DNA of 64,000 nucleotides from Candidatus Anderseniibacteriota bacterium. GTDB taxonomy: Bacteria; Patescibacteriota; Andersenbacteria; UBA10190. The stretch spans positions 195,370 to 259,369 of the forward strand of contig JAIOOW010000003.1 of the NCBI GenBank assembly GCA_021414205.1. Reading direction: 5' to 3'. The first letter of the stretch is position 1. Every line of letters starts with the position of its first letter. The translations under genes were made by a program, and so were the position numbers. The notes beneath the pieces are model-generated. The model was not told the DNA's origin, did not search any database, and was given only the letters and a program-made list of their open reading frames with translations. Of this stretch, positions 30,207-60,070 are shown piece by piece.

Positions 30207-31340
30207 TTAATGCGCCACTTCTACGTTAATTTGGCTGAGATTCGATGGGGTAGAGGAGACCCAGAACGGCCAGAATTTGATATCGACGCTCCCGATGCTC
30301 GGAAACGATGTGAAGTGGTCGTTGAGCTCTTGTTTTGATAATCCTGCCAAATTATTCTCAGATAATTCTGTTGAACCGATTTTTTTCGCGTATGTTCCGG
30401 TAAGAGTTGCGGATACTTTTGCCTGGCCCGTTGCCCAATCGGTTTGAGAGATTTTTAGGGAAAACGATGCCGGGTCGTACGAGAGAAATTCCTCATCTGG
30501 CGCAACGTCTGCCCTCAGCGCCAGCGTCATAAGGCTCACAATATCGTGAGAATCTACGATAAATTCTTTTGCTTGCACTGTTGCGCTTGCAGTGTAGCTA
30601 ACGGCGTGGCTACCAGCTTGCACAGACGCATCGTTGCTTTCCGTGTTTACGGATAATAAATCTTGGCGAATTTCAGCGCCGCCCGCTTGTTGTTTTATTT
30701 TGTCGAGTGCTTGCGCTGTCGCATCATCTAATGCCGACTTTTTAGCATTATCGATGTCTTGCTGAGAGATGGTCTGTGCGCCTACTTGGCCTCCAGAAAA
30801 TTGAGACGTGCTTACCGCATATACCACTTTTTGAAGTCCGGGAGAAAATTTATCTATTAAAAATTTCCCCGGAGCTACGTCGCCTGATGATCCTGTCTGT
30901 TCCGCAGTTATGGATGCATCGACGGTCCCTTGAGGAGGAATGATGACGGGGTTATCGGTAAGAAACATTGTTCCGTTTGGTTCGTATCGCAAGTGCGTAT
31001 GAGGCAGTAGCCGCTGTTCTGTGTCCTGATTATTCGTAAACGTCACCGTTCCTTTCGAATTGCCTTGCGTAATATCTCCCCCTGATTGTTGGACTGTTTT
31101 TTGCGCAGTTCCTTCTTGCGTTATTATTTTTGCAGGAAGCGCATAGTGAATATAGTCAGGGGTAGTACTTTTTGAAGACAGAAGGATATCTTTTGAAACG
31201 TTTCGCTGAGTGATTTTTGGATGAACGGTAATTGTTGCATGAGGAAGCGTCGTACCAAGTACGATAACAATTCCCCCAAGCACGCACAGCGTTATGAGTG
31301 CAAAGACACTTCGTTTCGGTAAAAAAACTTGAATAGCCAT
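30207..31340 (-). CDS. hypothetical N-terminally anchored extracytoplasmic protein
   Basis: ORF trimmed to Met after dnaE stop; TM helix ALITLCVLGGIVIVLG then Thr/Ser/Gln-rich domain. Confidence 0.55.
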   Translation of the reverse strand: MAIQVFLPKRSVFALITLCVLGGIVIVLGTTLPHATITVHPKITQRNVSKDILLSSKSTTPDYIHYALPAKIITQEGTAQKTVQQSGGDITQGNSKGTVTFTNNQDTEQRLLPHTHLRYEPNGTMFLTDNPVIIPPQGTVDASITAEQTGSSGDVAPGKFLIDKFSPGLQKVVYAVSTSQFSGGQVGAQTISQQDIDNAKKSALDDATAQALDKIKQQAGGAEIRQDLLSVNTESNDASVQAGSHAVSYTASATVQAKEFIVDSHDIVSLMTLALRADVAPDEEFLSYDPASFSLKISQTDWATGQAKVSATLTGTYAKKIGSTELSENNLAGLSKQELNDHFTSFPSIGSVDIKFWPFWVSSTPSNLSQINVEVAH

Positions 31341-31344
31341 AGTG

Positions 31345-34300
31345 TTACGTTGGAATGCGAATTGATTGCCTGCCAATAATGTCGGCAATTGCTGAAACCG
31401 TATCATCGCTAAGGGTAATGCGATAGGGGGTAGAGATGGTGGCCACGGAGCCCCCGCGAGGAATGTGCAGTGTGACGGGAATGCCGTTCGCGTCAACCTG
31501 CTTTTCTGAAAGTACGACGCGCAATTTTTCTAAGTCATCTCGTGACACTGAAGAGGAAAGAGAAAGTGTTACGGTCGGTCGTCGTTTTTCGCTTTGAGGG
31601 ATTGCGGGCTCCGCTGCTGCAGATTCTTTCGTAAGCGGGCGCACTTTATTCGCCAGCACTTTCGCTTCACCATCCTTATCTGAGAGCGTTCCATCGACGA
31701 TAATTTTTGCGCCATCTATCCAGAGAGACCCAGTTTCTTCGAGCAGTTTAGGAAATACTAATATTTCCGCCGCGTGCGATAAGTCTTCTATCGTAACGAA
31801 CAGCATGGGCTTCCCACTCTTGGTAATAATCTTTTTCATGCGAGAAATGATCCCTGCAATCCTAATGGTTGCGCCGTCTCGCCCGGTCGTAACGGATGCG
31901 ACAGGAGATGCGATTCGATCCATGATAGATACGTATTCTCGCAACGGGTGTTCGGAAATATATAACCCAAGCAATTCTTTTTCCCAGCCTAAGCGCTCAT
32001 CTTGCGTGCTTGGTGTTGCTTGCTGTAGCGTAATCTTTGGTTCTGGAAGAGGCTTGCTCGATGTTCCAAATAAATTCTTTTGTCCGGCGTCTGTTTTTCT
32101 GTGCAGTGCGCGATTAAAATCAAGTAGCGCGTCTGCATTTGCAAGCACTTCATTGCGATCGGTGAATAAGTCGAATCCGCCTGCTTTCGCCAAGCTTTCA
32201 ACTGTTTTTTTATTGAAATCTTTCGCATTTATTCTTCTAAATACGTCGAATAAATCCTTGAATGGTCCGCGGGCAGTTCGCTCCTCAATGAGCGCCGTCA
32301 TTGCGTGGGTTCCTACGTTTTTTACGGCAGATAATCCGAATCTGATTGCCTGCGCATCGTCTTTTATTTTTACAACGGAGAAGTCCACTTCGCTTTCATT
32401 CACGTCAGGAGGGAGGACGGGAATGTTGAGCGTGATTGCGTCGGCTACTTCAATTGCTTGCCGGTCGGTATTTCCTTGATCGGATGTTAGTAGTGCGGCC
32501 ATAAATTCTGCAGGGTAGTGCGCTTTAAGGTACGCCGTGTGATATGCAATCATGGCGTAGCATGCGGCATGCGCGCGGTTAAATCCATATCGGGCGAAGG
32601 GTTCAATGAAATCCCATACAGCCTGGGCTGTTTTTTGATCAACGCCCTGGGTTTTAATTGCTCCTGCAATAAATTTCTCTCGTTGTTCGTCCAGTAATTC
32701 TTTAATCTTTTTACCTACTGCTTTGCGCAAGATGTCCGCTTCAGCATAGGAGAAGCCAGAGAATTGTCGGGCAATCATGAGCACCTGGTCCTGCGTTACG
32801 ATAACGCCGTACGTTTTTTCCAGAATTGGTCTCAGCGTAGGGTGCAGGTATGTAATTTTTTTTCGTCCGTGTTTCGCGGCGATGAAATCAGGAATAGAAT
32901 CCATCGGTCCTGGGCGATAGAGAGCAACCATAGAGATAATATCCTCGAATTCAGAAGGTTTTAATTCTTTTAAGTAGCGTCTCATGCCAGAGGATTCTAA
33001 CTGGAACACTCCGATCGTTTTTGCTTGTTGGAGAAGTTCGTACGTTGCGGTGTCTTTTACGGAAAGAGTATCCAAGTTAATTTCTACGCCGTGCAGTTTT
33101 TTAATAATTTCTAATGCTTTTTGCAAAATTGTTAAGTTCTTGAGGCCCAAGAAGTCCATTTTCAAAAGCCCCAGTGCTTCCACTGCTCCCATCGCATATT
33201 GCGTCACGGTGTCTTTTGAGCCGTCTGATGTGCTCGATAGCTGCAAGGGGACATATTCCGTTAATGGCTTGTCGGTAATTACCACGGCAGCAGCGTGGGT
33301 GCTGGCGTGCCTACATACGCCCTCAAGTTTTTTTGCCATGTCGATTAATTTTTTCGCTTGCGGATCTTTGGTATACAAATCTTTTAATTCGCCGTCTTGC
33401 GACAATGCTTCTTCGAAGTTTGTAAATTGAGGAATAGCTTTTGCAACCTGGTCGCAGAATGAATACGGCATTGCCATTGCGCGGCCAGCATCGCGTACCG
33501 CAGCGCGTGCGGCCATTGTTCCGAATGTAATAATCTGTGATACGTGCTCTGCCCCATATTTTTCTCGCACATAATCAATGACCTCGCCACGGCGATCGTC
33601 CGCAAAGTCCAAGTCGATGTCGGGCATGCTTACGCGTTCCGGGTTCAAGAATCGCTCGAACAATAATTCGTATTGAATTGGGTCGACGTTGGTAATATTG
33701 GTAAGGTAGGCAACGAAGCTTCCTGCAGCGCTTCCTCTTCCTGGGCCAACGAAAATACCTCTGCTTTTTGCTTCCATCACAAAATCGGAAACGATCAAGA
33801 AGTACGCAGAGAACCCTGTCTGGGAAATAACCCCTAATTCATAATCGAGGCGTTCAAGAGCGCCTTCTGGAATTTTTTTGTCATATCTTGTCTTGAGTCC
33901 TTTTTCACATAATTCGCGCAGTGCTTGATCGGGTGTTTTTTCTTTTGGAAGAGGGAAGCGAGGGAGCTGATTTTTGTAGAATTCGAATGTTACATCACAC
34001 ATGTCTGCAATTTTCTGCGTATTATCCACCGCTTCAGGATGTTCTTTCCATGCCTCCTTTAATTCTTCGGGGCTTTTGAGCGAGTAGTCTTCGTCCGTCA
34101 TACTCATTCTATCTGTTTCGTCTACTGTTCTGCCTGTCTGTACGCAAATAAGCACGTCTTGTGCGGCAGCGTCTTCGGGGTGAATGTAGTGCGAGTCGGA
34201 TGTTGCAACTAATCCCACGTTATATTTTTTTGCGAGCTTGATTAATTCCGCATTTAACTTGAGCTGATCTGGAATATTCGGATGGTCTTGCACTTCCAAA

Positions 34301-51372: not shown

Positions 51373-51406
51373 CCGCTCGAACGATGTTTCGAGCGGTTTT
51401 TATTTT
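51373..51406 (+). terminator. rho-independent terminator
   Basis: CCGCTCGAA-CGATG-TTTCGAGCGG then TTTTTATTTT. Confidence 0.55.
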
Positions 51407-51663
51407 GTGTCCAAAAGGTGAGAATTAATTGGAACCGAATAGTAGAAGAAATATCACGGTTTGCAGGCATTTACCTGCGTTCTACACTTAGGGCGCAGAA
51501 TATATAAGGAATTTTAAGCGTGGGCTGGAAAAATTTGGAACCATTCACTAACTCCTCATTTAGCCTCACGAATATGAATTTCTGTTGTTGGCACTAGGGG
51601 AGGACATTAACGAGTAACTTCGATATAGACAGGCCCAACATACAAGCATAGGCTGATATTGAT

Positions 51664-53052
51664 ATGCACAAGCTAATTATCTACCTGGATCAAAATTTCA
51701 TTAGCGATATTGCTAAGCAGTCTTTAGAAGACAAAAAAGATAAAGTAAAACCTCTTTTAAAGGACTTCTTTGAAGTCATAAAAAGTGGCGTAGATAACGA
51801 ACAATTTGTATCTCCTGACAGCTGGATTCACAAAATAGAAACAGCAGCAGAGAATGATCCAGAATTGCAGGAAGCGATACATAGCTATCAAGGCTATTTA
51901 GGGCAAATATCTTTTACGTTACCCCAGGAAATTCAAAAGACTCAATTCGAGAAAGCAGTCCTGAGCTATTTTAATATTCAGCCTGTCGACAAGGAAGATT
52001 GGAAAGAAGCTTTTAGGGAAAACCCTGATAAGCGGATGGAAAACTATAAGATCGATATACTCATGGATATTGGCAATTCCCTTGCCGTAAGCGCAGCAAC
52101 TATACAGAATTTACAAAAAATTCGTGAAAGTGGAGTAAGTGAGAAGGTCCAATACAAAGCGGAAATTGAAGCTAGTAGAAAACACTATAAAGAGTTAATA
52201 CGCAGGGATTTCTTGCCCATACTCGAACAGTACAGTATTAGTATCGAACAAGCAGAGGAATTTATTGATTCTAATGAATTCACTCAGATACCTAATATTG
52301 ATATCTTCTGTCACCTTTGGAGTAGATGCCTTGCCGATAAAGGTCGCAAGACGGGGGTAGAAGGTGATTACAATGATATCCAGTTACTCTCGACATATCT
52401 TCCCTATTGCGATCTCCTTGCCACAGACAACTACATGAAGACGATGGTTAAGGAATTTAAAATAGATCAGCAATATAGCTGCCAAGTTATATCAATGAAA
52501 GAAGGTGAATTAAATGAAGCTATTGATTTTCTAGAGCAGGAACAAATAGAAAGACCCCCAGCTAACCAGAGTTTATTTTCTGTTTTATGCACCAAGGCTA
52601 ATGAAATACAGGCTTACTCTGTAGAATTCTTACGAAAGCTCAGTTTAGCATCAAACAAATTTCACAGAACGGGAAAGTACTGGAATAAAGAAGTGTATAC
52701 TGAGGTTTTTCTCGAGTTCTCAGGCAAAGAGAATATTGATCGAGCAGACCCAAAAACTGTTTTAGAAGCAGGGCCAGCTGTTATTAGTCCTAGCCAGTGG
52801 ACAGAGCTGCAAATTTTTAATTCTGGTTTTAAGAGTATTGAAAACACTACGGACAAAACTCCTTCAGAACTCATAGAAACTATACCCACACACCTCCTTG
52901 GACCAGCTACTGCGATTTTACCCGAGGGTTCGGTCTTTGACGAAGACTTGCGTGAGCACGACAGTGATCTTTTTTATGATATTGAGGACGCTGTAGAAAA
53001 TAAACGAAGTAAAACAAAAAAGTATTCTATCGATATTATTCACAATGATTAG
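51664..53052 (+). CDS. hypothetical protein, AT-rich island gene A (462 aa, no recognisable domain)
   Basis: Long ORF with clearly lower GC than flanks; no SD; overlaps gene B by 8 nt. Confidence 0.7.
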   Translation: MHKLIIYLDQNFISDIAKQSLEDKKDKVKPLLKDFFEVIKSGVDNEQFVSPDSWIHKIETAAENDPELQEAIHSYQGYLGQISFTLPQEIQKTQFEKAVLSYFNIQPVDKEDWKEAFRENPDKRMENYKIDILMDIGNSLAVSAATIQNLQKIRESGVSEKVQYKAEIEASRKHYKELIRRDFLPILEQYSISIEQAEEFIDSNEFTQIPNIDIFCHLWSRCLADKGRKTGVEGDYNDIQLLSTYLPYCDLLATDNYMKTMVKEFKIDQQYSCQVISMKEGELNEAIDFLEQEQIERPPANQSLFSVLCTKANEIQAYSVEFLRKLSLASNKFHRTGKYWNKEVYTEVFLEFSGKENIDRADPKTVLEAGPAVISPSQWTELQIFNSGFKSIENTTDKTPSELIETIPTHLLGPATAILPEGSVFDEDLREHDSDLFYDIEDAVENKRSKTKKYSIDIIHND

Positions 53053-54850
53053 AACTGAGTTACAAAATTATCTTGAAGGATTAGAAACAAGCAAGGACAT
53101 GCTTGACGAGGTTGAAATTGGCCAAGAAATTAGTAAAATCCTTAAACCAAAAAATGAAAAACTTACAAACGAAGAAGAAATTGCAGAGTATATAGCATTT
53201 CACTTCCTACCAAAATATCCCGATACTCAAACTAGCTGGGGTACTTATTATGGGCCGTTATACATATTGCCAAACGAGAAGGGTCAATACTCTGAGTTTC
53301 CTAGTATACAGGGTGTGAATACAAAGACTCTTGAGTATTGGGAAAATAGAGCAAATCAATCTCAGAATCCATTATTGGTAGGCCGGTACGCAGACCTTGT
53401 TTTTGATTTGAGCGCCAAGATAAACAGTAGCGAAAATATTAAGTATCAAATGGCACGGAAAGTTATTGATTCCACAATTACCATTTGCGAACAAGGGTTA
53501 GCCGATAGCTTAGATTCCAAACAAAAGCTTGAGCGTGCTCTTTCTTTATCGAAACAGATCAATGATAAAGATAGAATTAATAAGATTAAAGAAACAATTA
53601 TTAATACTGAAAGAAGACTTGCAGAAGATACCAAACCAGGAACTTGGGGCTATTCGTTTGAATGGTTAGTACTTCACCGTGACCCCAAAGTAGTCCTGAG
53701 CGAGGAGGAGGAAAAAATGATAATCAGCAGCCTAGCGGAGAGACTAGAAAGGCTAACCAACACAGAAAGCTCTGATCCCTGGAAAGTAGAATGTGCGGTA
53801 AACCTTCTTGCAGACTTTTATGCCTTAAAAAAAGATGAAGCCTCTTTAAATGACGCTTTGAGCAAATTAGAACAATCTTTTAGATCTAATAGTCGTGCAA
53901 ACTCAGATGGTCTGTTGCTAGTTAATTACCTGGAAAGACTAAGAGAAGTGTATTCTCGATATTTACAATTTCAGTTCGCGAAAGATGCAATGGACAGAAT
54001 AACTGCTGAATTGAGTAATGTAGGCAGTAAGGCAAACTTTGACATGAAGGAAATCTCGGCCGAAGTGAAAGTAAAACAAGAGGACATAGACAGATTTCTG
54101 TTCTCAATTTTTGGAGATGATAAAGATAACAAAAAAGAAATTGAAGAAGTTGTCAGCAGATTAGTAGTCAGTTTTGTTCCAAAAAAAGATGAATTAGAGA
54201 AGCAATTTAACGACCCGAATAAACAATTTATCTTTCGACAACTAGGATCAAATATGATCGTTTCCGATAAAGATGGTTTCCCTATAGCGAAGTTTGGCCC
54301 CGTGAGTGAAGATTATGATAGCCATTTAGGACAGTATTTTTCTGAAAACCTACATTTTCAATCAGTCTTTTTGAATTTGTCCTTTGTTGAGCTTAGGAAA
54401 AAGTATACTCCTGAATCTTTATATGAGTTCATGGGATCCTCAGCACTCTTCCTGCCAGAGGACAAGGATTACATATTAAAAATATTAAACGCGTTCTGGA
54501 ATAAAGATTTTCTATATAGCGGTGCTTTAATGGTACCCCTAATCGAAGACACAGTTAGAAACGTCTTTAGGATAAATAAATTGTCATTTATAAAACCTAA
54601 CAGTAATGCTGGCTATGATGTTCTTCCCTTATATGACCTATTAAACCATGGTGTCATTAAAGCAATATTTGGAAGTCTCGGTGAAAACATTGAGTACTAC
54701 TTTAAATCCCTGCTGACTTCAAGAATAGGTTGGAACTTGAGAAATAATTTTGCGCATGGGATAAACAAGAACTATTTCGCTAGTCCGAACGTATCGAATA
54801 GGCTCTTGCACGTATTGCTTTGTCTTTCTCTCATTAGAAAAAATAAATGA
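53045..54850 (+). CDS. hypothetical protein, island gene B (601 aa) with C-terminal HEPN-like Rx4H motif
   Basis: C-terminal ...RIGWNLRNNFAHGINKNYF (R-x4-H, Abi_2/Swt1-type HEPN signature) after ~500-aa helical region; AT-rich. Confidence 0.7.
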   Translation: MIRTELQNYLEGLETSKDMLDEVEIGQEISKILKPKNEKLTNEEEIAEYIAFHFLPKYPDTQTSWGTYYGPLYILPNEKGQYSEFPSIQGVNTKTLEYWENRANQSQNPLLVGRYADLVFDLSAKINSSENIKYQMARKVIDSTITICEQGLADSLDSKQKLERALSLSKQINDKDRINKIKETIINTERRLAEDTKPGTWGYSFEWLVLHRDPKVVLSEEEEKMIISSLAERLERLTNTESSDPWKVECAVNLLADFYALKKDEASLNDALSKLEQSFRSNSRANSDGLLLVNYLERLREVYSRYLQFQFAKDAMDRITAELSNVGSKANFDMKEISAEVKVKQEDIDRFLFSIFGDDKDNKKEIEEVVSRLVVSFVPKKDELEKQFNDPNKQFIFRQLGSNMIVSDKDGFPIAKFGPVSEDYDSHLGQYFSENLHFQSVFLNLSFVELRKKYTPESLYEFMGSSALFLPEDKDYILKILNAFWNKDFLYSGALMVPLIEDTVRNVFRINKLSFIKPNSNAGYDVLPLYDLLNHGVIKAIFGSLGENIEYYFKSLLTSRIGWNLRNNFAHGINKNYFASPNVSNRLLHVLLCLSLIRKNK

Positions 54851-54869
54851 CGAGGACTTTATAAGCCAG

Positions 54870-55142
54870 ATGACCGAAGTAAAAGGTAAGATCAAGGCAT
54901 TGGAATTATTACAATCGGAATATTAGTCAGAACAGGATGATTTTGAAGAACTTATCACAATTGCTTTTGATGCACTTAAAAATCCGCTCAAGAGTTGGAA
55001 TGATCTAAAAGATACAAGAAAAAAAGTGCGGTTCGAACACTTTGTGTATCCTGGTGGCTTAGAATATGATGGAAAATCCTTGTCGAATCACGGAATTTCG
55101 CTTCTTGTGTGTTTATTTGCTACTGTTTCCGCTCAAAGGTAA
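54870..55142 (+). pseudogene. gene remnant interrupted by in-frame TAG (codon 19)
   Basis: Single frame reads MTEVKGKIKALELLQSEY*SEQDDFEELITIAFDALKNPLKSWNDLKDTRKKVRFEHFVYPGGLEYDGKS... with one internal stop at 54924-26. Confidence 0.35.
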
Positions 55143-55168
55143 AAAGTCGAACAAGCAATTATAGGAAA

Positions 55169-55240
55169 GTCCGGGGAATAGGAGTTGAACCTATCTAGAG
55201 GGATTTACAGTCCCTTGCATAGCCGATCTGCCATCCCCGG
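55169..55240 (-). tRNA. tRNA-Tyr (GUA), class I / archaeal-eukaryal type (5-nt variable loop, C1-G72)
   Basis: Manual fold: acceptor CCGGGGA/TCCCCGG, anticodon arm AGGGA-CTGTAAA-TCCCC, variable TCTAG, T arm ATAGG-TTCAACT-CCTAT, discriminator A; D stem only 3 bp. Confidence 0.7.
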
Positions 55241-55315
55241 TGGAGCCAGCTGTCGGAATCGAACCGACGATCTTCTGTTTACAAAACAGTTGCTCTACCA
55301 CTGAGCTAAGCTGGC
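55241..55315 (-). tRNA. tRNA-Thr (UGU)
   Basis: Acceptor GCCAGCT/AGCTGGC, anticodon loop TTTGTAA, T arm GTCGG-TTCGATT-CCGAC, encoded CCA. Confidence 0.85.
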
Positions 55316-55362
55316 ATATATACAAAACTGGCATCTGCCAGCGTTTCGTATACTATGAATAT

Positions 55363-56442
55363 ATGACAGAAAAACAAGAAATAATCAACCGTTTGCAGCA
55401 CAATTTGGCTGAAATCATCACACCGGAGGAATTTGAGGGGCTTATTACTAGAATTGAATCTGGCGAAAAAGTGACCCATTATATTGGGTTTGAAATCTCC
55501 GGATATGTCCATATCGGGCAGGGGATTATGTCTGCGCTGGTGATAAAAGACCTCCAAGCGCTTGGGGTGCAGTGCACTATTTGGTTGGCAGATTGGCATA
55601 CGGCCATTAATCATAAGTTAGATGGCTCAAAAGAAACGGCCGCGAAGATTGGTACAGGATATTTTACGGAAGCGATAAAAGCGTGCCTGATGGCCGTTGG
55701 CGCTGATATGGAAAAAGTAGAATTTCGATTGGCTAGTGAGTGGTATGCAAAAGATGCTATGGGATACTGGAATACCGTCATGAGCGTAGCGCAGAACACG
55801 ACACTGGCGCGCATTCAGCGAAGCATCAGTATTATGGGGAAAGAGGCAGGCGAAGATGTGGAAATGGCAACGCTGTTTTATCCTGTAATGCAGGTGGCAG
55901 ATATTTTTTATCAAGACATTGCAATTGCGCATTCCAGTATGGATCAGCGCAAGGCGCACGTAGTGATGCGAGATACGGCAAGTAAGGTAATGCCGAATAA
56001 GCCGAAGCCTGTAGCGCTGCATCATGCATTAATAGATAGTCTGACGGGCGATAATAAAATGAGCAAATCAAAACCGGATTCTGCTGTATTTGTTCATGAT
56101 GATGCTGAAAGTATTTCTGTAAAAATTAAAAAAGCATTCTGCGAAGAAAGAAATATTGAAAAGAATCCGATTTTAAACTGGACGAAGAATATTTTATTCT
56201 GGTCCCGCACGGCGCCATTTACTATTGAGCGAGAAGAAAAATTTGGTGGAAATGTTTCGCTTGCTTCGTATGAAGAACTAGAAAAAGCATTTGCAGCAGG
56301 TGGTGTGCATCCAATGGATTTGAAAGCTGCCGTTGCTAAAGAAATTATCGCGCTTCTGAAGCCGGCTCGCGATCATTTTGCGAAACCGGAAATTGCCGAG
56401 ATGAAAAAAGAATTAGACGATGTCATCACTAAGCGAGGATAA
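55363..56442 (+). CDS. tyrS: tyrosine--tRNA ligase, archaeal/eukaryotic type
   Basis: HIGH-like YIGFEISGYVHIGQ, YPVMQVADI, KMSKS, EKFGGNVSLASYEELE, HPMDLKAAVA; collinear with M. jannaschii TyrRS; ORF trimmed to ATG 55363 (track ORF runs over the tRNAs). Confidence 0.85.
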   Translation: MTEKQEIINRLQHNLAEIITPEEFEGLITRIESGEKVTHYIGFEISGYVHIGQGIMSALVIKDLQALGVQCTIWLADWHTAINHKLDGSKETAAKIGTGYFTEAIKACLMAVGADMEKVEFRLASEWYAKDAMGYWNTVMSVAQNTTLARIQRSISIMGKEAGEDVEMATLFYPVMQVADIFYQDIAIAHSSMDQRKAHVVMRDTASKVMPNKPKPVALHHALIDSLTGDNKMSKSKPDSAVFVHDDAESISVKIKKAFCEERNIEKNPILNWTKNILFWSRTAPFTIEREEKFGGNVSLASYEELEKAFAAGGVHPMDLKAAVAKEIIALLKPARDHFAKPEIAEMKKELDDVITKRG

Positions 56443-56686
56443 TAAAAAGGATATTGCGCAAGCGGAGCTAGAAAAACTCTCTGTAAAAATTGGCCAACGC
56501 TATACTCACTATAAAGGCGGGGAATATGAAGTGATTGCGCTGGCACTCAAAGAAGATACGTTAGAGCCGCTAGTTATTTACCAGGCACTTGGCCATGGCG
56601 GAACGGTGTGGGCGCGGACGTGGGGTGATTGGAATGCGGATGTGCAGTGGGAGGGGAAAGCGGTGAAACGGTTTGCATTGCTATAA
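56420..56686 (+). CDS. DUF1653-like small protein
   Basis: RYTHYKGGEYEVIALA...EPLVIYQ pattern typical of DUF1653. Confidence 0.55.
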   Translation: MSSLSEDNKKDIAQAELEKLSVKIGQRYTHYKGGEYEVIALALKEDTLEPLVIYQALGHGGTVWARTWGDWNADVQWEGKAVKRFALL

Positions 56687-58158: not shown

Positions 58159-58167
58159 CTAGAAGTG

Positions 58168-58239
58168 AGCCAGCAGTGGGAATCGGACCCACGGTCTCGT
58201 CATTACCAATGACGTGCTTTACCACTAAGCTATGCTGGC
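58168..58239 (-). tRNA. tRNA-Thr (GGU)
   Basis: Acceptor GCCAGCA/TGCTGGC, D GCTT/AAGC, anticodon arm CGTCA-TTGGTAA-TGACG, T arm GTGGG-TCCGATT-CCCAC. Confidence 0.85.
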
Positions 58240-58269: not shown

Positions 58270-59763
58270 ATGTTCAAGTTTCTTGTACGGCTGTTTATTG
58301 TACTTATAGTTATTGGGGTAATTATCGGTGGTATTTTCTACGGGGTGCGCAGTATTAATGGAAAACATTCTGCGAAAACGCCGGAAGTATTGGGGGCAAG
58401 TCAGGTGGTCCCGGCGTTGCAAGCACTGCTTGTGCAAAGCGACGAAAAGAGCGGGCAAAAGCGAGTGCTTTCGTGCACGGAAAAGGGGTGCTCGGTGATT
58501 TCTGCGCCATCGTCATCTGATGAAAATGCATTGTCTGATGGGAGTTCGTGGTATCGATATTCTGAAAGCAAAGATAAGAATAGCGATTCAATTACGACGT
58601 TGGAAAAAGTGAGCAAAGACGGAACTGTTGAAAAAATATCTGAGCAAAATGCGCTGGTGAAACCGCGCGGGCTTACGATGAGCCAGGACGGTGCGAAGGT
58701 GGCATATTTTTTGGACAATGTTCACGACAATCAAGGACTTACGGAATTATGGGTATATGACAATACTCAAGGCGGAGCAAAGGTGGTTGCGGAGAATCTT
58801 GTACAAAAACAAATCGCATCTCGTGTGCGCTGGAATGCATCCTCGCGCGTCGCATGGTTTTTGCAAGATGGAGCAACGCGCCAATTTATTGCAGTGCCGG
58901 TGCAAGATAAAGCAGCGCCATCAGCGCGCTTTGCAAACGTGGATTGGAATACGTATTCGCAAAATGCGGATACCGGAGTAATGGATGTAAACGACAAAGC
59001 GAATCTCGTGGCGTTTACGGAGCCAACATTTTTTGGATTCTCCCAGCTCACTATCGCGCAAGATAGCGGAGGAATAACGAAGCATTCCATAAAAGGGAAT
59101 GTGGCGTTTGTTCGATGGATGGAAAACGATGCATTGTTATATGCGGTGCAGGATGGGCAAAATCTTGCGTTCTGGATTGCTAATAGCACAGGCGAGCGCC
59201 CTGTTGCGCGCATGCTCGGGCAATTTCGATCAGCGCATTCCTCCGGGTCTTCAGACTTGGCTGCGTTCGTAGCAGATCCGCATCCGGGAGAAAGTCATGT
59301 GTATGTGCTTCAAATCTCTACCGGTTTTGTGAGAGACGAAACGATCATCCCGAATTTTTCAGGAAATACGTATGTAGTGCAGGCAAATGAGGCGCAAGCT
59401 GAGCAAGATAAGGCGGTAGCGGGAATTTCCGGGCAATTACGCGACGAGGAGCTGCTCGCCTTTGTGAATGATCATCTCAAAGACATGACGGGCGATTCCC
59501 AGGCAAAGGCAGAGCGGATGCTGACTACGGATAGCAAGAATACGATCTATGTAGACTACACAAGCGGAAATACGACAGAGAGGAGAATCTTGGTAGTTAT
59601 CCAAGACGCAGTTCACCCCCAGTGGACCGTGCTCGCTCGCTATATCCCGATAGCGGGGCAATGGAAGCGGGATCAGGAGGCTCAGAATGCAGATCCTACC
59701 CCTAAGAGGCTGTATGAATACGAGACATCTGTTTCAGAGTGGATTTTAAAGGAAACCTACTAG
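58270..59763 (+). CDS. hypothetical N-terminally anchored extracytoplasmic protein (497 aa)
   Basis: TM helix LFIVLIVIGVIIGGIFYGV then soluble domain; no domain call. Confidence 0.6.
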   Translation: MFKFLVRLFIVLIVIGVIIGGIFYGVRSINGKHSAKTPEVLGASQVVPALQALLVQSDEKSGQKRVLSCTEKGCSVISAPSSSDENALSDGSSWYRYSESKDKNSDSITTLEKVSKDGTVEKISEQNALVKPRGLTMSQDGAKVAYFLDNVHDNQGLTELWVYDNTQGGAKVVAENLVQKQIASRVRWNASSRVAWFLQDGATRQFIAVPVQDKAAPSARFANVDWNTYSQNADTGVMDVNDKANLVAFTEPTFFGFSQLTIAQDSGGITKHSIKGNVAFVRWMENDALLYAVQDGQNLAFWIANSTGERPVARMLGQFRSAHSSGSSDLAAFVADPHPGESHVYVLQISTGFVRDETIIPNFSGNTYVVQANEAQAEQDKAVAGISGQLRDEELLAFVNDHLKDMTGDSQAKAERMLTTDSKNTIYVDYTSGNTTERRILVVIQDAVHPQWTVLARYIPIAGQWKRDQEAQNADPTPKRLYEYETSVSEWILKETY

Positions 59764-59996: not shown

Positions 59997-59999
59997 ATG

Positions 60000-60070
60000 C
60001 AGGGGTGGAAGGAATCGAACCCTCGTTGGTCGCTTTGGAGGCGAATGTCTTACCACTAGACGACACCCCT
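60000..60070 (-). tRNA. tRNA-Trp (CCA)
   Basis: Acceptor AGGGGTG/CACCCCT, D GTCT/AGAC, anticodon loop CTCCAAA, T arm GAGGG-TTCGATT-CCTTC. Confidence 0.8.

Follow-up and report, generated by a model that had tools for sequence, protein, structure and literature searches.

Archaeal/eukaryal-type tyrosyl-tRNA synthetases (TyrRSs) and C1-G72 tRNA-Tyr have been described in Parcubacteria and other CPR bacteria by Mukai, Reynolds, Crnkovic and Soll (2017, Life 7:8, PMC5370408). Andersenbacteria were among the five major bacterial groups in the TyrRS tree of that study, and a DPANN origin was inferred. Because this type of pair was reported with Andersenbacteria named, the core finding at the locus examined here, an archaeal-type Tyr pair in Andersenbacteria, has been known since 2017. 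The text of PMC5370408 does not discuss the linkage of tyrS and tRNA-Tyr or the locus, and the word operon is confined to its TrpRS-A section. New here are the tRNA-Thr(UGU) gene in the gap between the two genes, the clade-wide divergent linkage, and the position of tyrS inside a bacterial tRNA cluster.

The operons in question are the tRNA-Trp(A73)-ORF1-TrpRS-A operons of Microgenomates (PMC5370408), which resemble the Andersenbacteria locus in that an archaeal-identity tRNA is linked to an archaeal-type class Ic synthetase in CPR bacteria. The Microgenomates genes are co-oriented, include the extra ORF1, and occur alongside a bacterial TrpRS, whereas the Andersenbacteria pair is divergent and lies in a housekeeping tRNA cluster. 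Furthermore, the tRNA-Trp in the window (the whole 64-kb stretch of DNA that was analyzed) is of the ordinary bacterial G73 type, unlike the Microgenomates tRNA-Trp(A73).

The M. jannaschii pair (PDB 1j1u), which serves as the usual orthogonal pair in genetic code expansion, is similar to the window pair in its collinear enzyme and in the residues that recognize C1-G72 and G34. The two tRNAs also share C1-G72, A73, the GUA anticodon, and a short variable region. However, the window enzyme is 359 aa long rather than 306 aa and is nearer to the P. horikoshii type (2cyc), and the Andersenbacteria pair, unlike that of M. jannaschii, is native to bacterial translation machinery.

In the case of the tRNA genes, the closest clusters are thrU-tyrU-glyT-thrT-tufB of E. 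coli and a cluster on a Paceibacterota contig (L115), which share with the Andersenbacteria locus the tRNA set, the polarity from Thr(UGU) to Tyr, and the adjacency of these two genes. An upstream tsf is common to L115 and the Andersenbacteria clade. The E. coli and L115 clusters have a class II G1-C72 tRNA-Tyr and no synthetase gene, whereas in Andersenbacteria the Thr(UGU)-Tyr dyad is inverted and tyrS is placed between it and Thr(GGU).

The locus belongs to a CPR bacterium

The window carries the bacterial genes for PheRS alpha/beta, GyrB, DnaE, GatB, RF1, MiaA, FtsW, and a sortase, as well as rpsB and tsf, and its initiator tRNA has C1.A72. The host is a CPR bacterium and is neither an archaeon nor a contaminant, because these housekeeping genes share the contig with tyrS, because the window TyrRS shares 100% identity with MCE9643424.1, a protein from a MAG of Candidatus Andersenbacteria (CPR), and because synteny is kept in 25 assemblies.

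The tyrS gene encodes an archaeal/eukaryal-type TyrRS

The ATG at 55363 was taken as the true start of tyrS because homologues start with MTEKQEII, and the stop end of the ORF is at 56442. The earlier note had described the product as an archaeal/eukaryal-type TyrRS that lacks the S4-like domain, and the profile searches bore out both points. Specifically, NCBIfam model NF006330 (PRK08560) scored 367 bits (cut-off, 220) and covered residues 5-346 of 359, and the bacterial tyrS model TIGR00234 scored 103.6 bits, which is below its cut-off of 113.8. PF00579, at residues 34-333, was the sole Pfam domain; Pfam detected no S4 domain, and the 26-residue C-terminal tail had no Pfam match. The enzyme was collinear with M. 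jannaschii TyrRS at 42% identity. Its top PDB match was P. horikoshii 2cyc (E=4.5e-90), and further best matches were the 376-aa TyrRS 7fg6 and A. pernix TyrRS. The HIGH motif reads HIGQ (HLGT in P. horikoshii), and KMSKS is present.

An alignment of the M. jannaschii enzyme with nine clade sequences indicated that the tyrosine-pocket residues Y32, Q155, D158, and Q173 (M. jannaschii numbering) were invariant, as were R132, R174, K175, and D286, by which C1-G72 and G34 are read. Work by Kobayashi et al. in 2003 is said to have found that D286 of the M. jannaschii enzyme reads G34. Roles in C1-G72 reading have been described for R132, R174, and K175 (PMC1934993).

In a crude neighbor-joining tree without support values, the TyrRSs of the Andersenbacteria clade formed one monophyletic group, which was nested among sequences of DPANN archaea and of other CPR bacteria. 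The tyrS gene is compositionally ameliorated, with a GC content of 0.432 compared to 0.45-0.48 for housekeeping genes and a GC3 that likewise matches these genes. This composition and the clade-wide presence of the gene argue against a recent foreign insertion, an outcome that the earlier note had kept in view.

The adjacent tRNA-Tyr is a class I C1-G72 tRNA

A class I C1-G72 tRNA-Tyr(GUA) next to tyrS, as first read from the sequence, was recovered by ARAGORN (55169-55240, minus strand) and by Rfam RF00005 (55170-55240; 55.0 bits with a gathering score of 29; E=4e-9). In the Rfam alignment, the tRNA has C1-G72, C2-G71, and discriminator A73, and the window sequence encodes no CCA at its 3' end. 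The variable region had been given as 5 nt; the Rfam alignment and a positional parse corrected this length to 4 nt (CUAG). Across the clade the region is 4-5 nt, and a V-arm is absent from all 24 well-formed tRNA-Tyr sequences, whereas many C1-G72 tRNA-Tyr sequences of CPR bacteria retain one (PMC5370408).

Compensatory changes were found in 9 of the 19 stem pairs among 18 distinct clade orthologues. C1-G72 and C2-G71 never varied in this set, and the GUA anticodon and A73 were also invariant. According to the positional parse, the anticodon loop of the window tRNA is CUGUAAA, and hence position 37 is A, and there is a G13.A22 mismatch. Both features match E. coli tyrU rather than M. jannaschii tRNA-Tyr, which has G37 and C13-G22 and, like the window tRNA, an acceptor start of CCGG... 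with C1-G72, C2-G71, and A73. A37 need not reflect ancestry and could instead have arisen as an adaptation to MiaA.

Comparisons of the D-arm with class I tRNAs in our panel yielded scores of 6 or less and were not discriminating. The best scores against class II tRNA-Tyr from a metagenome scan were 12 and 9, which mildly favor a bacterial tRNA body but are weak evidence because the scan selected on anticodon and T-loop sequence. A blastn search of E. coli genomes with the tRNA-Tyr gene returned no match, the query being too short for the 28-Gb database.

tyrS lies inside a bacterial tRNA cluster

The features of the locus are listed in Table 1. The earlier note had placed the enzyme gene on the plus strand and the tRNA gene on the minus strand about 120 nt apart. 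The strands and the spacing held, as the 5' end of tRNA-Tyr is 122 nt from the tyrS ATG, but this interval is not empty because an overlooked tRNA-Thr(UGU) gene fills part of it and abuts tRNA-Tyr, and only 47 nt are truly intergenic. The encoded CCA of tRNA-Thr(UGU) (55243-55241) is followed directly by C1 of tRNA-Tyr, which makes the two genes a zero-spacer Thr-Tyr dicistron. A Thr(UGU)-Tyr spacing of 0-3 nt was also observed in loci L001, L003, L004, L005, L008, L009, L010, and L013.

Table 1. Positions of tyrS and the neighboring features in the window
Feature	Position	Strand	Basis or remark
tRNA-Tyr(GUA), class I	55170..55240	-	ARAGORN, Rfam alignment, positional parse, covariation across 18 distinct orthologues
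tRNA-Thr(UGU), encoded U73-CCA	55241..55315	-	ARAGORN; Rfam 72.4 bits; sequence
Divergent intergenic region, 47 nt	55316..55362	.	Sequence
tyrS	55363..56442	+	359-aa archaeal/eukaryal-type tyrosyl-tRNA synthetase; Pfam, NCBIfam, PDB matches
tRNA-Thr(GGU)	58167..58239	-	ARAGORN, Rfam; conserved member of the tyrS-flanking tRNA cluster
497-aa ORF	58270..59763	+	No Pfam domain
tRNA-Trp(CCA), A1-U72, G73	59999..60070	-	ARAGORN, Rfam alignment

A scan of the 47-nt region identified a small palindrome/hairpin at 55328-55341 (CTGGCATCTGCCAG). A conserved -10-like TATACT is located at 55349-55354, 8 nt upstream of the tyrS ATG; GTATACTATGAAT[AG]T is kept in the tyrS upstream region of relatives, and nearly all other clade loci examined have a TAnnnT box 6-8 nt upstream of the ATG. 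The 47-nt region contains no Shine-Dalgarno sequence ahead of tyrS and, in a sigma-70 consensus scan, no full sigma-70 promoter. Given the lack of a Shine-Dalgarno sequence, tyrS is probably leaderless, a reading drawn from the conserved -10-like box.

On its other side, tyrS is followed by tRNA-Thr(GGU) in most clade loci, and the two are within 90 nt of each other in about half. The gene is embedded in a tRNA cluster of bacterial type, Thr(UGU)-Tyr-Thr(GGU)-Trp. The discriminator of tRNA-Trp is G73 in bacteria and A73 in archaea (PMC5370408). The window tRNA-Trp has the bacterial identity, and therefore archaeal identity at this locus is limited to the Tyr system.

The other flank of the tRNA-Tyr gene is a 3.76-kb low-GC indel (51406-55168), which had no convincing att-like direct repeats around it. 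This indel ends exactly at the 3' end of tRNA-Tyr, and the tyrS/tRNA-Tyr pair is located outside of it.

Among the loci compared, the divergent linkage is confined to the Andersenbacteria clade

The divergent linkage of tRNA-Tyr and tyrS was found in 25 of the 28 species-level loci of the Andersenbacteria clade and in none of the 52 loci outside of the clade that encode a related TyrRS (8 from other CPR bacteria and 44 from archaea). This linkage supported the earlier suggestion that the two genes are co-inherited. The C1-G72 and C2-G71 pairs, which stay fixed while other pairs covary, likewise agreed with the first reading. The outside loci were searched for a tRNA-Tyr within about 4 kb of tyrS, intron search included, and no credible candidate was detected. 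One tRNA-Tyr call by intron-aware ARAGORN, in Micrarchaeota locus L042, was rejected as a false positive; its acceptor stem has 8 bp and carries G1-C72, and its intron would sit at a non-canonical position. Within the clade, locus L017 had no tRNA-Tyr in the 4 kb upstream. The archaeal-type tyrS was found in all of the species that were sampled from the clade, among which Thr(UGU) differed in orientation.

The Paceibacterota contig L115 has the order tsf-ORF-Thr(UGU)-Tyr(class II, G1-C72)-Thr(GGU)-Trp with no tyrS, and the same tRNA set was found in L123, L088, L149, and L195. The E. coli cluster thrU-tyrU-glyT-thrT is comparable, with a class II tRNA-Tyr and no tyrS. In addition, tsf and a TPR gene are located upstream in the window and in clade loci L011 and L052. 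A C1-G72 tRNA-Tyr that still has a V-arm was seen in L109, L152, L172, L188, and L193.

Origin of the tyrosine pair

We consider it very likely that the locus encodes a CPR tyrosine-decoding pair in which a DPANN-like tyrS was inserted in a resident tRNA cluster and then inherited vertically. The archaeal-type TyrRS, which has no S4 domain, is predicted to charge the class I tRNA-Tyr(GUA), whose identity would lie in C1-G72, A73, and the anticodon; with no long variable arm on the tRNA, the S4 domain would not be needed. A DPANN-like archaeon would have supplied tyrS ahead of the radiation of the Andersenbacteria clade, with vertical transmission since then. The gene would have entered the resident bacterial cluster Thr(UGU)-Tyr-Thr(GGU)-Trp, which follows rpsB-tsf, and a later inversion of the Thr(UGU)-Tyr dyad would have created the divergent layout with both tRNAs on the strand opposite to tyrS. 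The ancestral layout is inferred, given that Thr(UGU) has more than one orientation in the clade.

The linkage could instead be a relic of a single archaeal fragment that carried both tRNA-Tyr and tyrS into an ancestor of Andersenbacteria, as the earlier note had suggested, and we view this as unlikely. The tight linkage conserved across the clade would fit such a transfer, as would a tRNA-Tyr that has no V-arm and whose acceptor start (CCGG..., C1-G72, C2-G71, A73) resembles that of M. jannaschii tRNA-Tyr. It is also known that replacement experiments in E. coli required the enzyme and the tRNA to be transferred together (PMC5370408 introduction). However, the archaeal and other-CPR loci had no credible tRNA-Tyr within about 4 kb of tyrS, and the window tRNA-Tyr follows Thr(UGU) immediately on its 3' side, an arrangement shared with the bacterial Thr-Tyr dyad. 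Its A37, in a genome segment with miaA, is that of E. coli tyrU and not the G37 of M. jannaschii. Moreover, C1-G72 tRNA-Tyr sequences with V-arms are found in other CPR bacteria (PMC5370408 and the five loci noted above), and therefore in-place conversion occurs. The tRNA-Tyr gene is part of a Thr(UGU)-Tyr dyad within a typical bacterial cluster, which points to tyrS landing at a resident tRNA-Tyr locus, and capture of tyrS at this locus fits better than co-transfer of a linked archaeal cassette. The tRNA-Tyr would then be a resident bacterial gene that was remodeled or replaced in place, with the V-arm lost and the 1-72 pair flipped. As a tentative extension of tyrS capture, the locus may be the site of a natural tRNA-identity switch: tyrS captured in the resident Thr(UGU)-Tyr-Thr(GGU)-Trp operon, the class II tRNA-Tyr remodeled (V-arm deleted, G1-C72 to C1-G72) rather than imported, and selection for co-expression or co-evolution of the pair then maintaining the tight divergent linkage, in which tyrS is leaderless and the Thr-Tyr dicistron abuts.

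The archaeal-type pair is presumably the only Tyr system of the genome. It is quite improbable that it is a second pair with a specialized or stress role that coexists with a canonical bacterial TyrRS and tRNA-Tyr elsewhere, in the manner of Beckwithbacteria TrpRS-A. Coexisting Trp pairs are known in CPR bacteria, but PMC5370408 describes coexistence for Trp only, and the 64-kb window contains no further TyrRS or tRNA-Tyr. The Andersenbacteria pair also holds the canonical tRNA-Tyr slot of the housekeeping cluster, where Paceibacterota keep a class II tRNA-Tyr, and its tyrS is ameliorated and present in every clade species sampled. The idea of an archaeal contig that reached a bacterial MAG through mis-assembly or mis-binning, or of a very recent island, can draw on the known cross-contamination of CPR and DPANN MAGs (PMC5370408) and on the low-GC indel that adjoins tRNA-Tyr. 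It is effectively refuted because the synteny is conserved: the layout recurs in 25 independent assemblies. In addition, bacterial genes and bacterial-type tRNAs flank tyrS on both sides on one contig, the GC content of tyrS matches the genome, and the indel excludes the pair, stopping at the tRNA-Tyr 3' end.

Implications of the locus

Archaeal Tyr identity in a bacterium indicates that tRNA identity rules are not tied to domain of life, a point made for Andersenbacteria in 2017. The capture of a synthetase at the resident tRNA-Tyr site, as suggested by the locus evidence, is a concrete and testable route for a non-lethal swap of an essential identity. Andersenbacteria-type pairs are archaeal-type yet already adapted to the EF-Tu, ribosome, RNase P, and MiaA of bacteria, and therefore they could be candidate parts for genetic code expansion.

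The region between tRNA-Thr(GGU) and tRNA-Trp

A tuf gene, expected from E. coli, was not found between tRNA-Thr(GGU) and tRNA-Trp; the clade has a 497/516-aa ORF there. The 497-aa ORF occupies this position in the window and in clade locus L011. Its 44 homologues yielded no outgroup loci, and all of the named taxa among them were Andersenbacteria, Patescibacteria group, or unclassified bacterium.

The TyrRS and its adjoining tRNA genes

The tyrS gene is native to its CPR bacterial host. Its GC content (0.432) and GC3 (0.411) matched those of housekeeping genes, and the window carried bacterial genes for PheRS alpha/beta, GyrB, DnaE, GatB, RF1, MiaA, FtsW, a sortase, and rpsB-tsf. According to Rfam alignments, the initiator tRNA had the bacterial C1.A72 mismatch and tRNA-Trp had the bacterial G73. 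The encoded TyrRS was 100% identical to MCE9643424.1, which is annotated as tyrosine--tRNA ligase in a Candidatus Andersenbacteria MAG and whose contig is 435,833 bp long.

A long ORF starting with GTG at 55240 overlapped the tRNA-Tyr and tRNA-Thr(UGU) genes. Because homologues start at MTEKQEII, we placed the real tyrS start at the ATG at 55363, which gives a 359-aa protein. The protein had a single Pfam domain (PF00579) with no S4 domain among its Pfam matches. Searched with NF006330, the model for archaeal-type TyrRS, it scored 367 bits; with TIGR00234, the model for bacterial tyrS, it missed the cut-off. Its best solved relatives were the P. horikoshii TyrRS (2cyc), a 376-aa TyrRS (7fg6), and the A. 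pernix TyrRS (2cya); the eukaryotic and M. jannaschii enzymes ranked next. These results agreed with the earlier note, which had described an archaeal/eukaryotic-type TyrRS without the S4-like domain.

In an alignment of M. jannaschii TyrRS (reference sequence confirmed identical to 1j1u_A) and nine clade sequences, the tyrosine-pocket residues Y32, D158, Q155, and Q173 (M. jannaschii numbering), the KMSKS core, R132, R174, K175, and D286 of the HPMDLK motif were invariant. In the M. jannaschii enzyme, D286 reads G34. R132, R174, and K175 are the residues that recognize C1-G72 in the M. jannaschii complex (PMC1934993). C1, G72, and A73 are sufficient, when transplanted, to turn foreign tRNA bodies into substrates for the archaeal TyrRS (PMC6337575). 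Therefore, a bacterial tRNA body with those elements would be expected to work.

Features of the window (tRNA calls by ARAGORN; bits are for the Rfam tRNA model, gathering score 29)
Feature	Position	Strand	Remarks
ORF beside dnaE	30207-31496	-	429 aa; weak Baseplate_J-like Pfam match, E=3e-4, below gathering score
Low-GC segment	51406-55168		3.76 kb; GC 0.372 vs 0.453 for the window
ORF in low-GC segment	51664-53052		No family match
ORF in low-GC segment	53045-54850		DUF4209/DUF7380; match (E=2e-26) to PDC-S39, a PADLOC candidate defence system
tRNA-Tyr(GUA)	55169-55240	-	55.0 bits
tRNA-Thr(UGU)	55241-55315	-	72.4 bits; directly abuts tRNA-Tyr
Hairpin	55328-55341		CTGGC-ATCT-GCCAG, perfect 5-bp palindrome
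tyrS	55363-56442	+	359 aa
tRNA-Thr(GGU)	58167-58239		
tRNA-Trp	59999-60070		

Seven tRNAs were found in the window by ARAGORN. For tRNA-Tyr, C1-G72, C2-G71, and discriminator A73 were read from its Rfam alignment and from a parse by position, so that the proposed C1-G72 tRNA-Tyr(GUA) was borne out, but its variable loop had 4 nt (CUAG) rather than the 5 nt first reported. The anticodon loop was CUGUAAA, hence A at position 37. One cloverleaf fit 18 distinct orthologous tRNA-Tyr sequences, with compensatory changes in 9 of 19 pairs; C1-G72 and C2-G71 were invariant, and this combination is the pattern that would be expected of identity elements under selection. CCA was not encoded by the tRNA-Tyr gene. 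That of tRNA-Thr(UGU) was encoded (55243-55241) and was followed with zero spacer by C1 of tRNA-Tyr (55240); a single RNase P cut would generate the 5' end of tRNA-Tyr together with the mature 3' end of tRNA-Thr. Spacers of 0-3 nt were also present in about nine relatives.

One tRNA-Tyr (L022:527-603), on a 2.5-kb Patescibacteria contig, had the usual 5' half and a 3' acceptor strand (CGATAGT) that did not pair with the 5' strand. It lay in a Leu, Pro, Glu, Thr, Ala, Tyr array on a contig with two Thr(UGU) genes and could represent a pseudogene or a chimeric assembly.

Linkage of tRNA-Tyr and tyrS

A comparative scan in which each GTDB species was represented by a single genome yielded 80 TyrRS loci: 28 from the Andersenbacteria clade (52-92% amino-acid identity to the window enzyme), 8 from other CPR bacteria, and 44 from archaea. 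In a neighbor-joining distance tree without support values, the Andersenbacteria enzymes formed one monophyletic group embedded among those of DPANN archaea and other CPR bacteria. Of the 28 clade loci, 25 had a tRNA-Tyr(GUA) upstream of tyrS and on the other strand, at a distance of 106-1664 nt; the exceptions lacked upstream sequence (L007), had only 1 kb of it (L023), or had no tRNA-Tyr within 4 kb (L017). At the 52 remaining loci, no credible tRNA-Tyr was found within about 4 kb of tyrS, even with an intron-aware search, and the sole call outside the clade (L042) was a false positive. Therefore, the linkage is clade-specific and inherited, which fits the co-inheritance suggested in the earlier note, and it is not a feature of the likely donors.

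The core finding is already known from Mukai et al. (Life 2017; Mukai, Reynolds, Crnkovic, and Soll; PMC5370408), who reported that Parcubacteria, Microgenomates, WS6, and WWE3 combine archaea/eukarya-type TyrRS with C1-G72 tRNA-Tyr. They inferred DPANN origins, and their TyrRS tree has five major bacterial groups, of which Andersenbacteria is one. Neither the tyrS locus nor any linkage between tyrS and tRNA-Tyr is covered in the text of that paper, and among the papers searched no other joined Andersenbacteria with tyrosyl-tRNA synthetase. Thus, the clade-wide linkage and its tRNA-cluster context are modest additions.

Origin of the tRNA-Tyr gene

The conserved clade order was tRNA-Tyr (-), Thr(UGU) (- or +), tyrS (+), Thr(GGU), a 497-516-aa ORF, and Trp, with rpsB-tsf and a TPR gene upstream. 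The ORF was seen in the window and at locus L011, and its named homologues were all from Andersenbacteria or unclassified CPR/bacterial MAGs. The Thr(UGU)-then-Tyr adjacency is shared with the E. coli cluster thrU(UGU)-tyrU-glyT-thrT(GGU)-tufB. One metagenome scan for long-arm tRNA-Tyr sharing the clade's anticodon-loop and T-loop sequences returned many phage tRNA arrays; several of the other contigs were bacterial and bore clusters of the form Thr(UGU)-Tyr-(Gly)-Thr(GGU)-(Trp). The most informative contig, L115, encoded an FtsX 87% identical to a protein of Candidatus Paceibacterota, a Parcubacterial CPR group, and carried tsf, an ORF, Thr(UGU), tRNA-Tyr, Thr(GGU), and Trp on one strand. Its tRNA-Tyr was class II with G1-C72 and its cluster lacked tyrS, whereas Andersenbacteria had a class I C1-G72 tRNA-Tyr and tyrS inside the cluster. 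From an L115-like ancestral order, which we infer from a limited set of loci, tyrS would have been inserted after tRNA-Tyr, and inversion of the Thr(UGU)-Tyr dyad would have produced the Andersenbacteria layout. The dyad kept the canonical Thr-then-Tyr polarity. Taken with the L115-derived order, the clade tRNA-Tyr would thus be positionally orthologous to the resident bacterial gene.

This position in the Thr-Tyr cluster speaks against import of a linked archaeal tRNA-Tyr and tyrS cassette, the co-transfer that the earlier note had entertained. The tRNA body agrees with an in-place origin, although its sequence evidence is weak: like E. coli tyrU, the window tRNA-Tyr has A37 and a mismatched G13.A22, and miaA is present in the window. 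Moreover, C1-G72 tRNA-Tyr still bearing long V-arms occurs on other metagenomic contigs and has been described for other CPR bacteria (PMC5370408). Together, these features favor remodelling or replacement of tRNA-Tyr at the resident locus, to which we give roughly an even chance, over cassette import, which we consider unlikely.

The V-armed C1-G72 tRNA-Tyr(GUA) genes (84-92 nt) were on metagenome contigs L109, L152, L172, L188, and L193; they represent the "intermediate" form of tRNA identity known from the work of Mukai et al. on other CPR bacteria. Some were in multi-tRNA arrays and may be phage-borne. The class II tRNA-Tyr of Paceibacterota type (L115:12000-12087; also L123, L141, and L158) had an unusual D-arm, e.g. 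TAGTCCCGTAGGGAGCGGGGA, unlike the GAGCGG-type D-loop that is normally seen. Thr(GGU) and Trp were on the strand opposite to the ORF between them in the window and its closest relatives, and in most other clade members they were co-oriented with it, a difference that implies small inversions of single tRNA genes during the history of the clade.

The intergenic region and tyrS expression

A distance of 122 nt separated the 5' end of tRNA-Tyr from the ATG of tyrS. Given the tyrS start and the position of tRNA-Thr(UGU), this interval is therefore mostly tRNA-Thr, and only 47 nt are truly intergenic. Most clade loci examined had a -10-like TAnnnT box 6-8 nt before the ATG (TATACT within 55349-55362 in the window), and nearly all lacked a Shine-Dalgarno sequence for tyrS, which suggests that the tyrS mRNA is leaderless across the clade. 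At L017, L021, and L022, the box was within a 19-22-nt gap behind a co-oriented tRNA-Thr. The hairpin between tRNA-Thr and tyrS was terminator-like on the minus strand. It was conserved in three relatives (L001, L002, and L010), and relatives further removed did not share it.

Indels near the locus

The low-GC segment ended exactly at the tRNA-Tyr 3' end and was missing from the close relative L001 (92% identical), in which its flanks were contiguous. No integrase or att repeats were found for the segment, which is probably a small defence-type island acquired beside the tRNA gene. L001 had an extra RimK-like ATP-grasp gene (277 aa; L001:5075-5924) directly downstream of tyrS that was absent from the equivalent site in the window (56437-56443), which shows further indel turnover around the tyrS locus.
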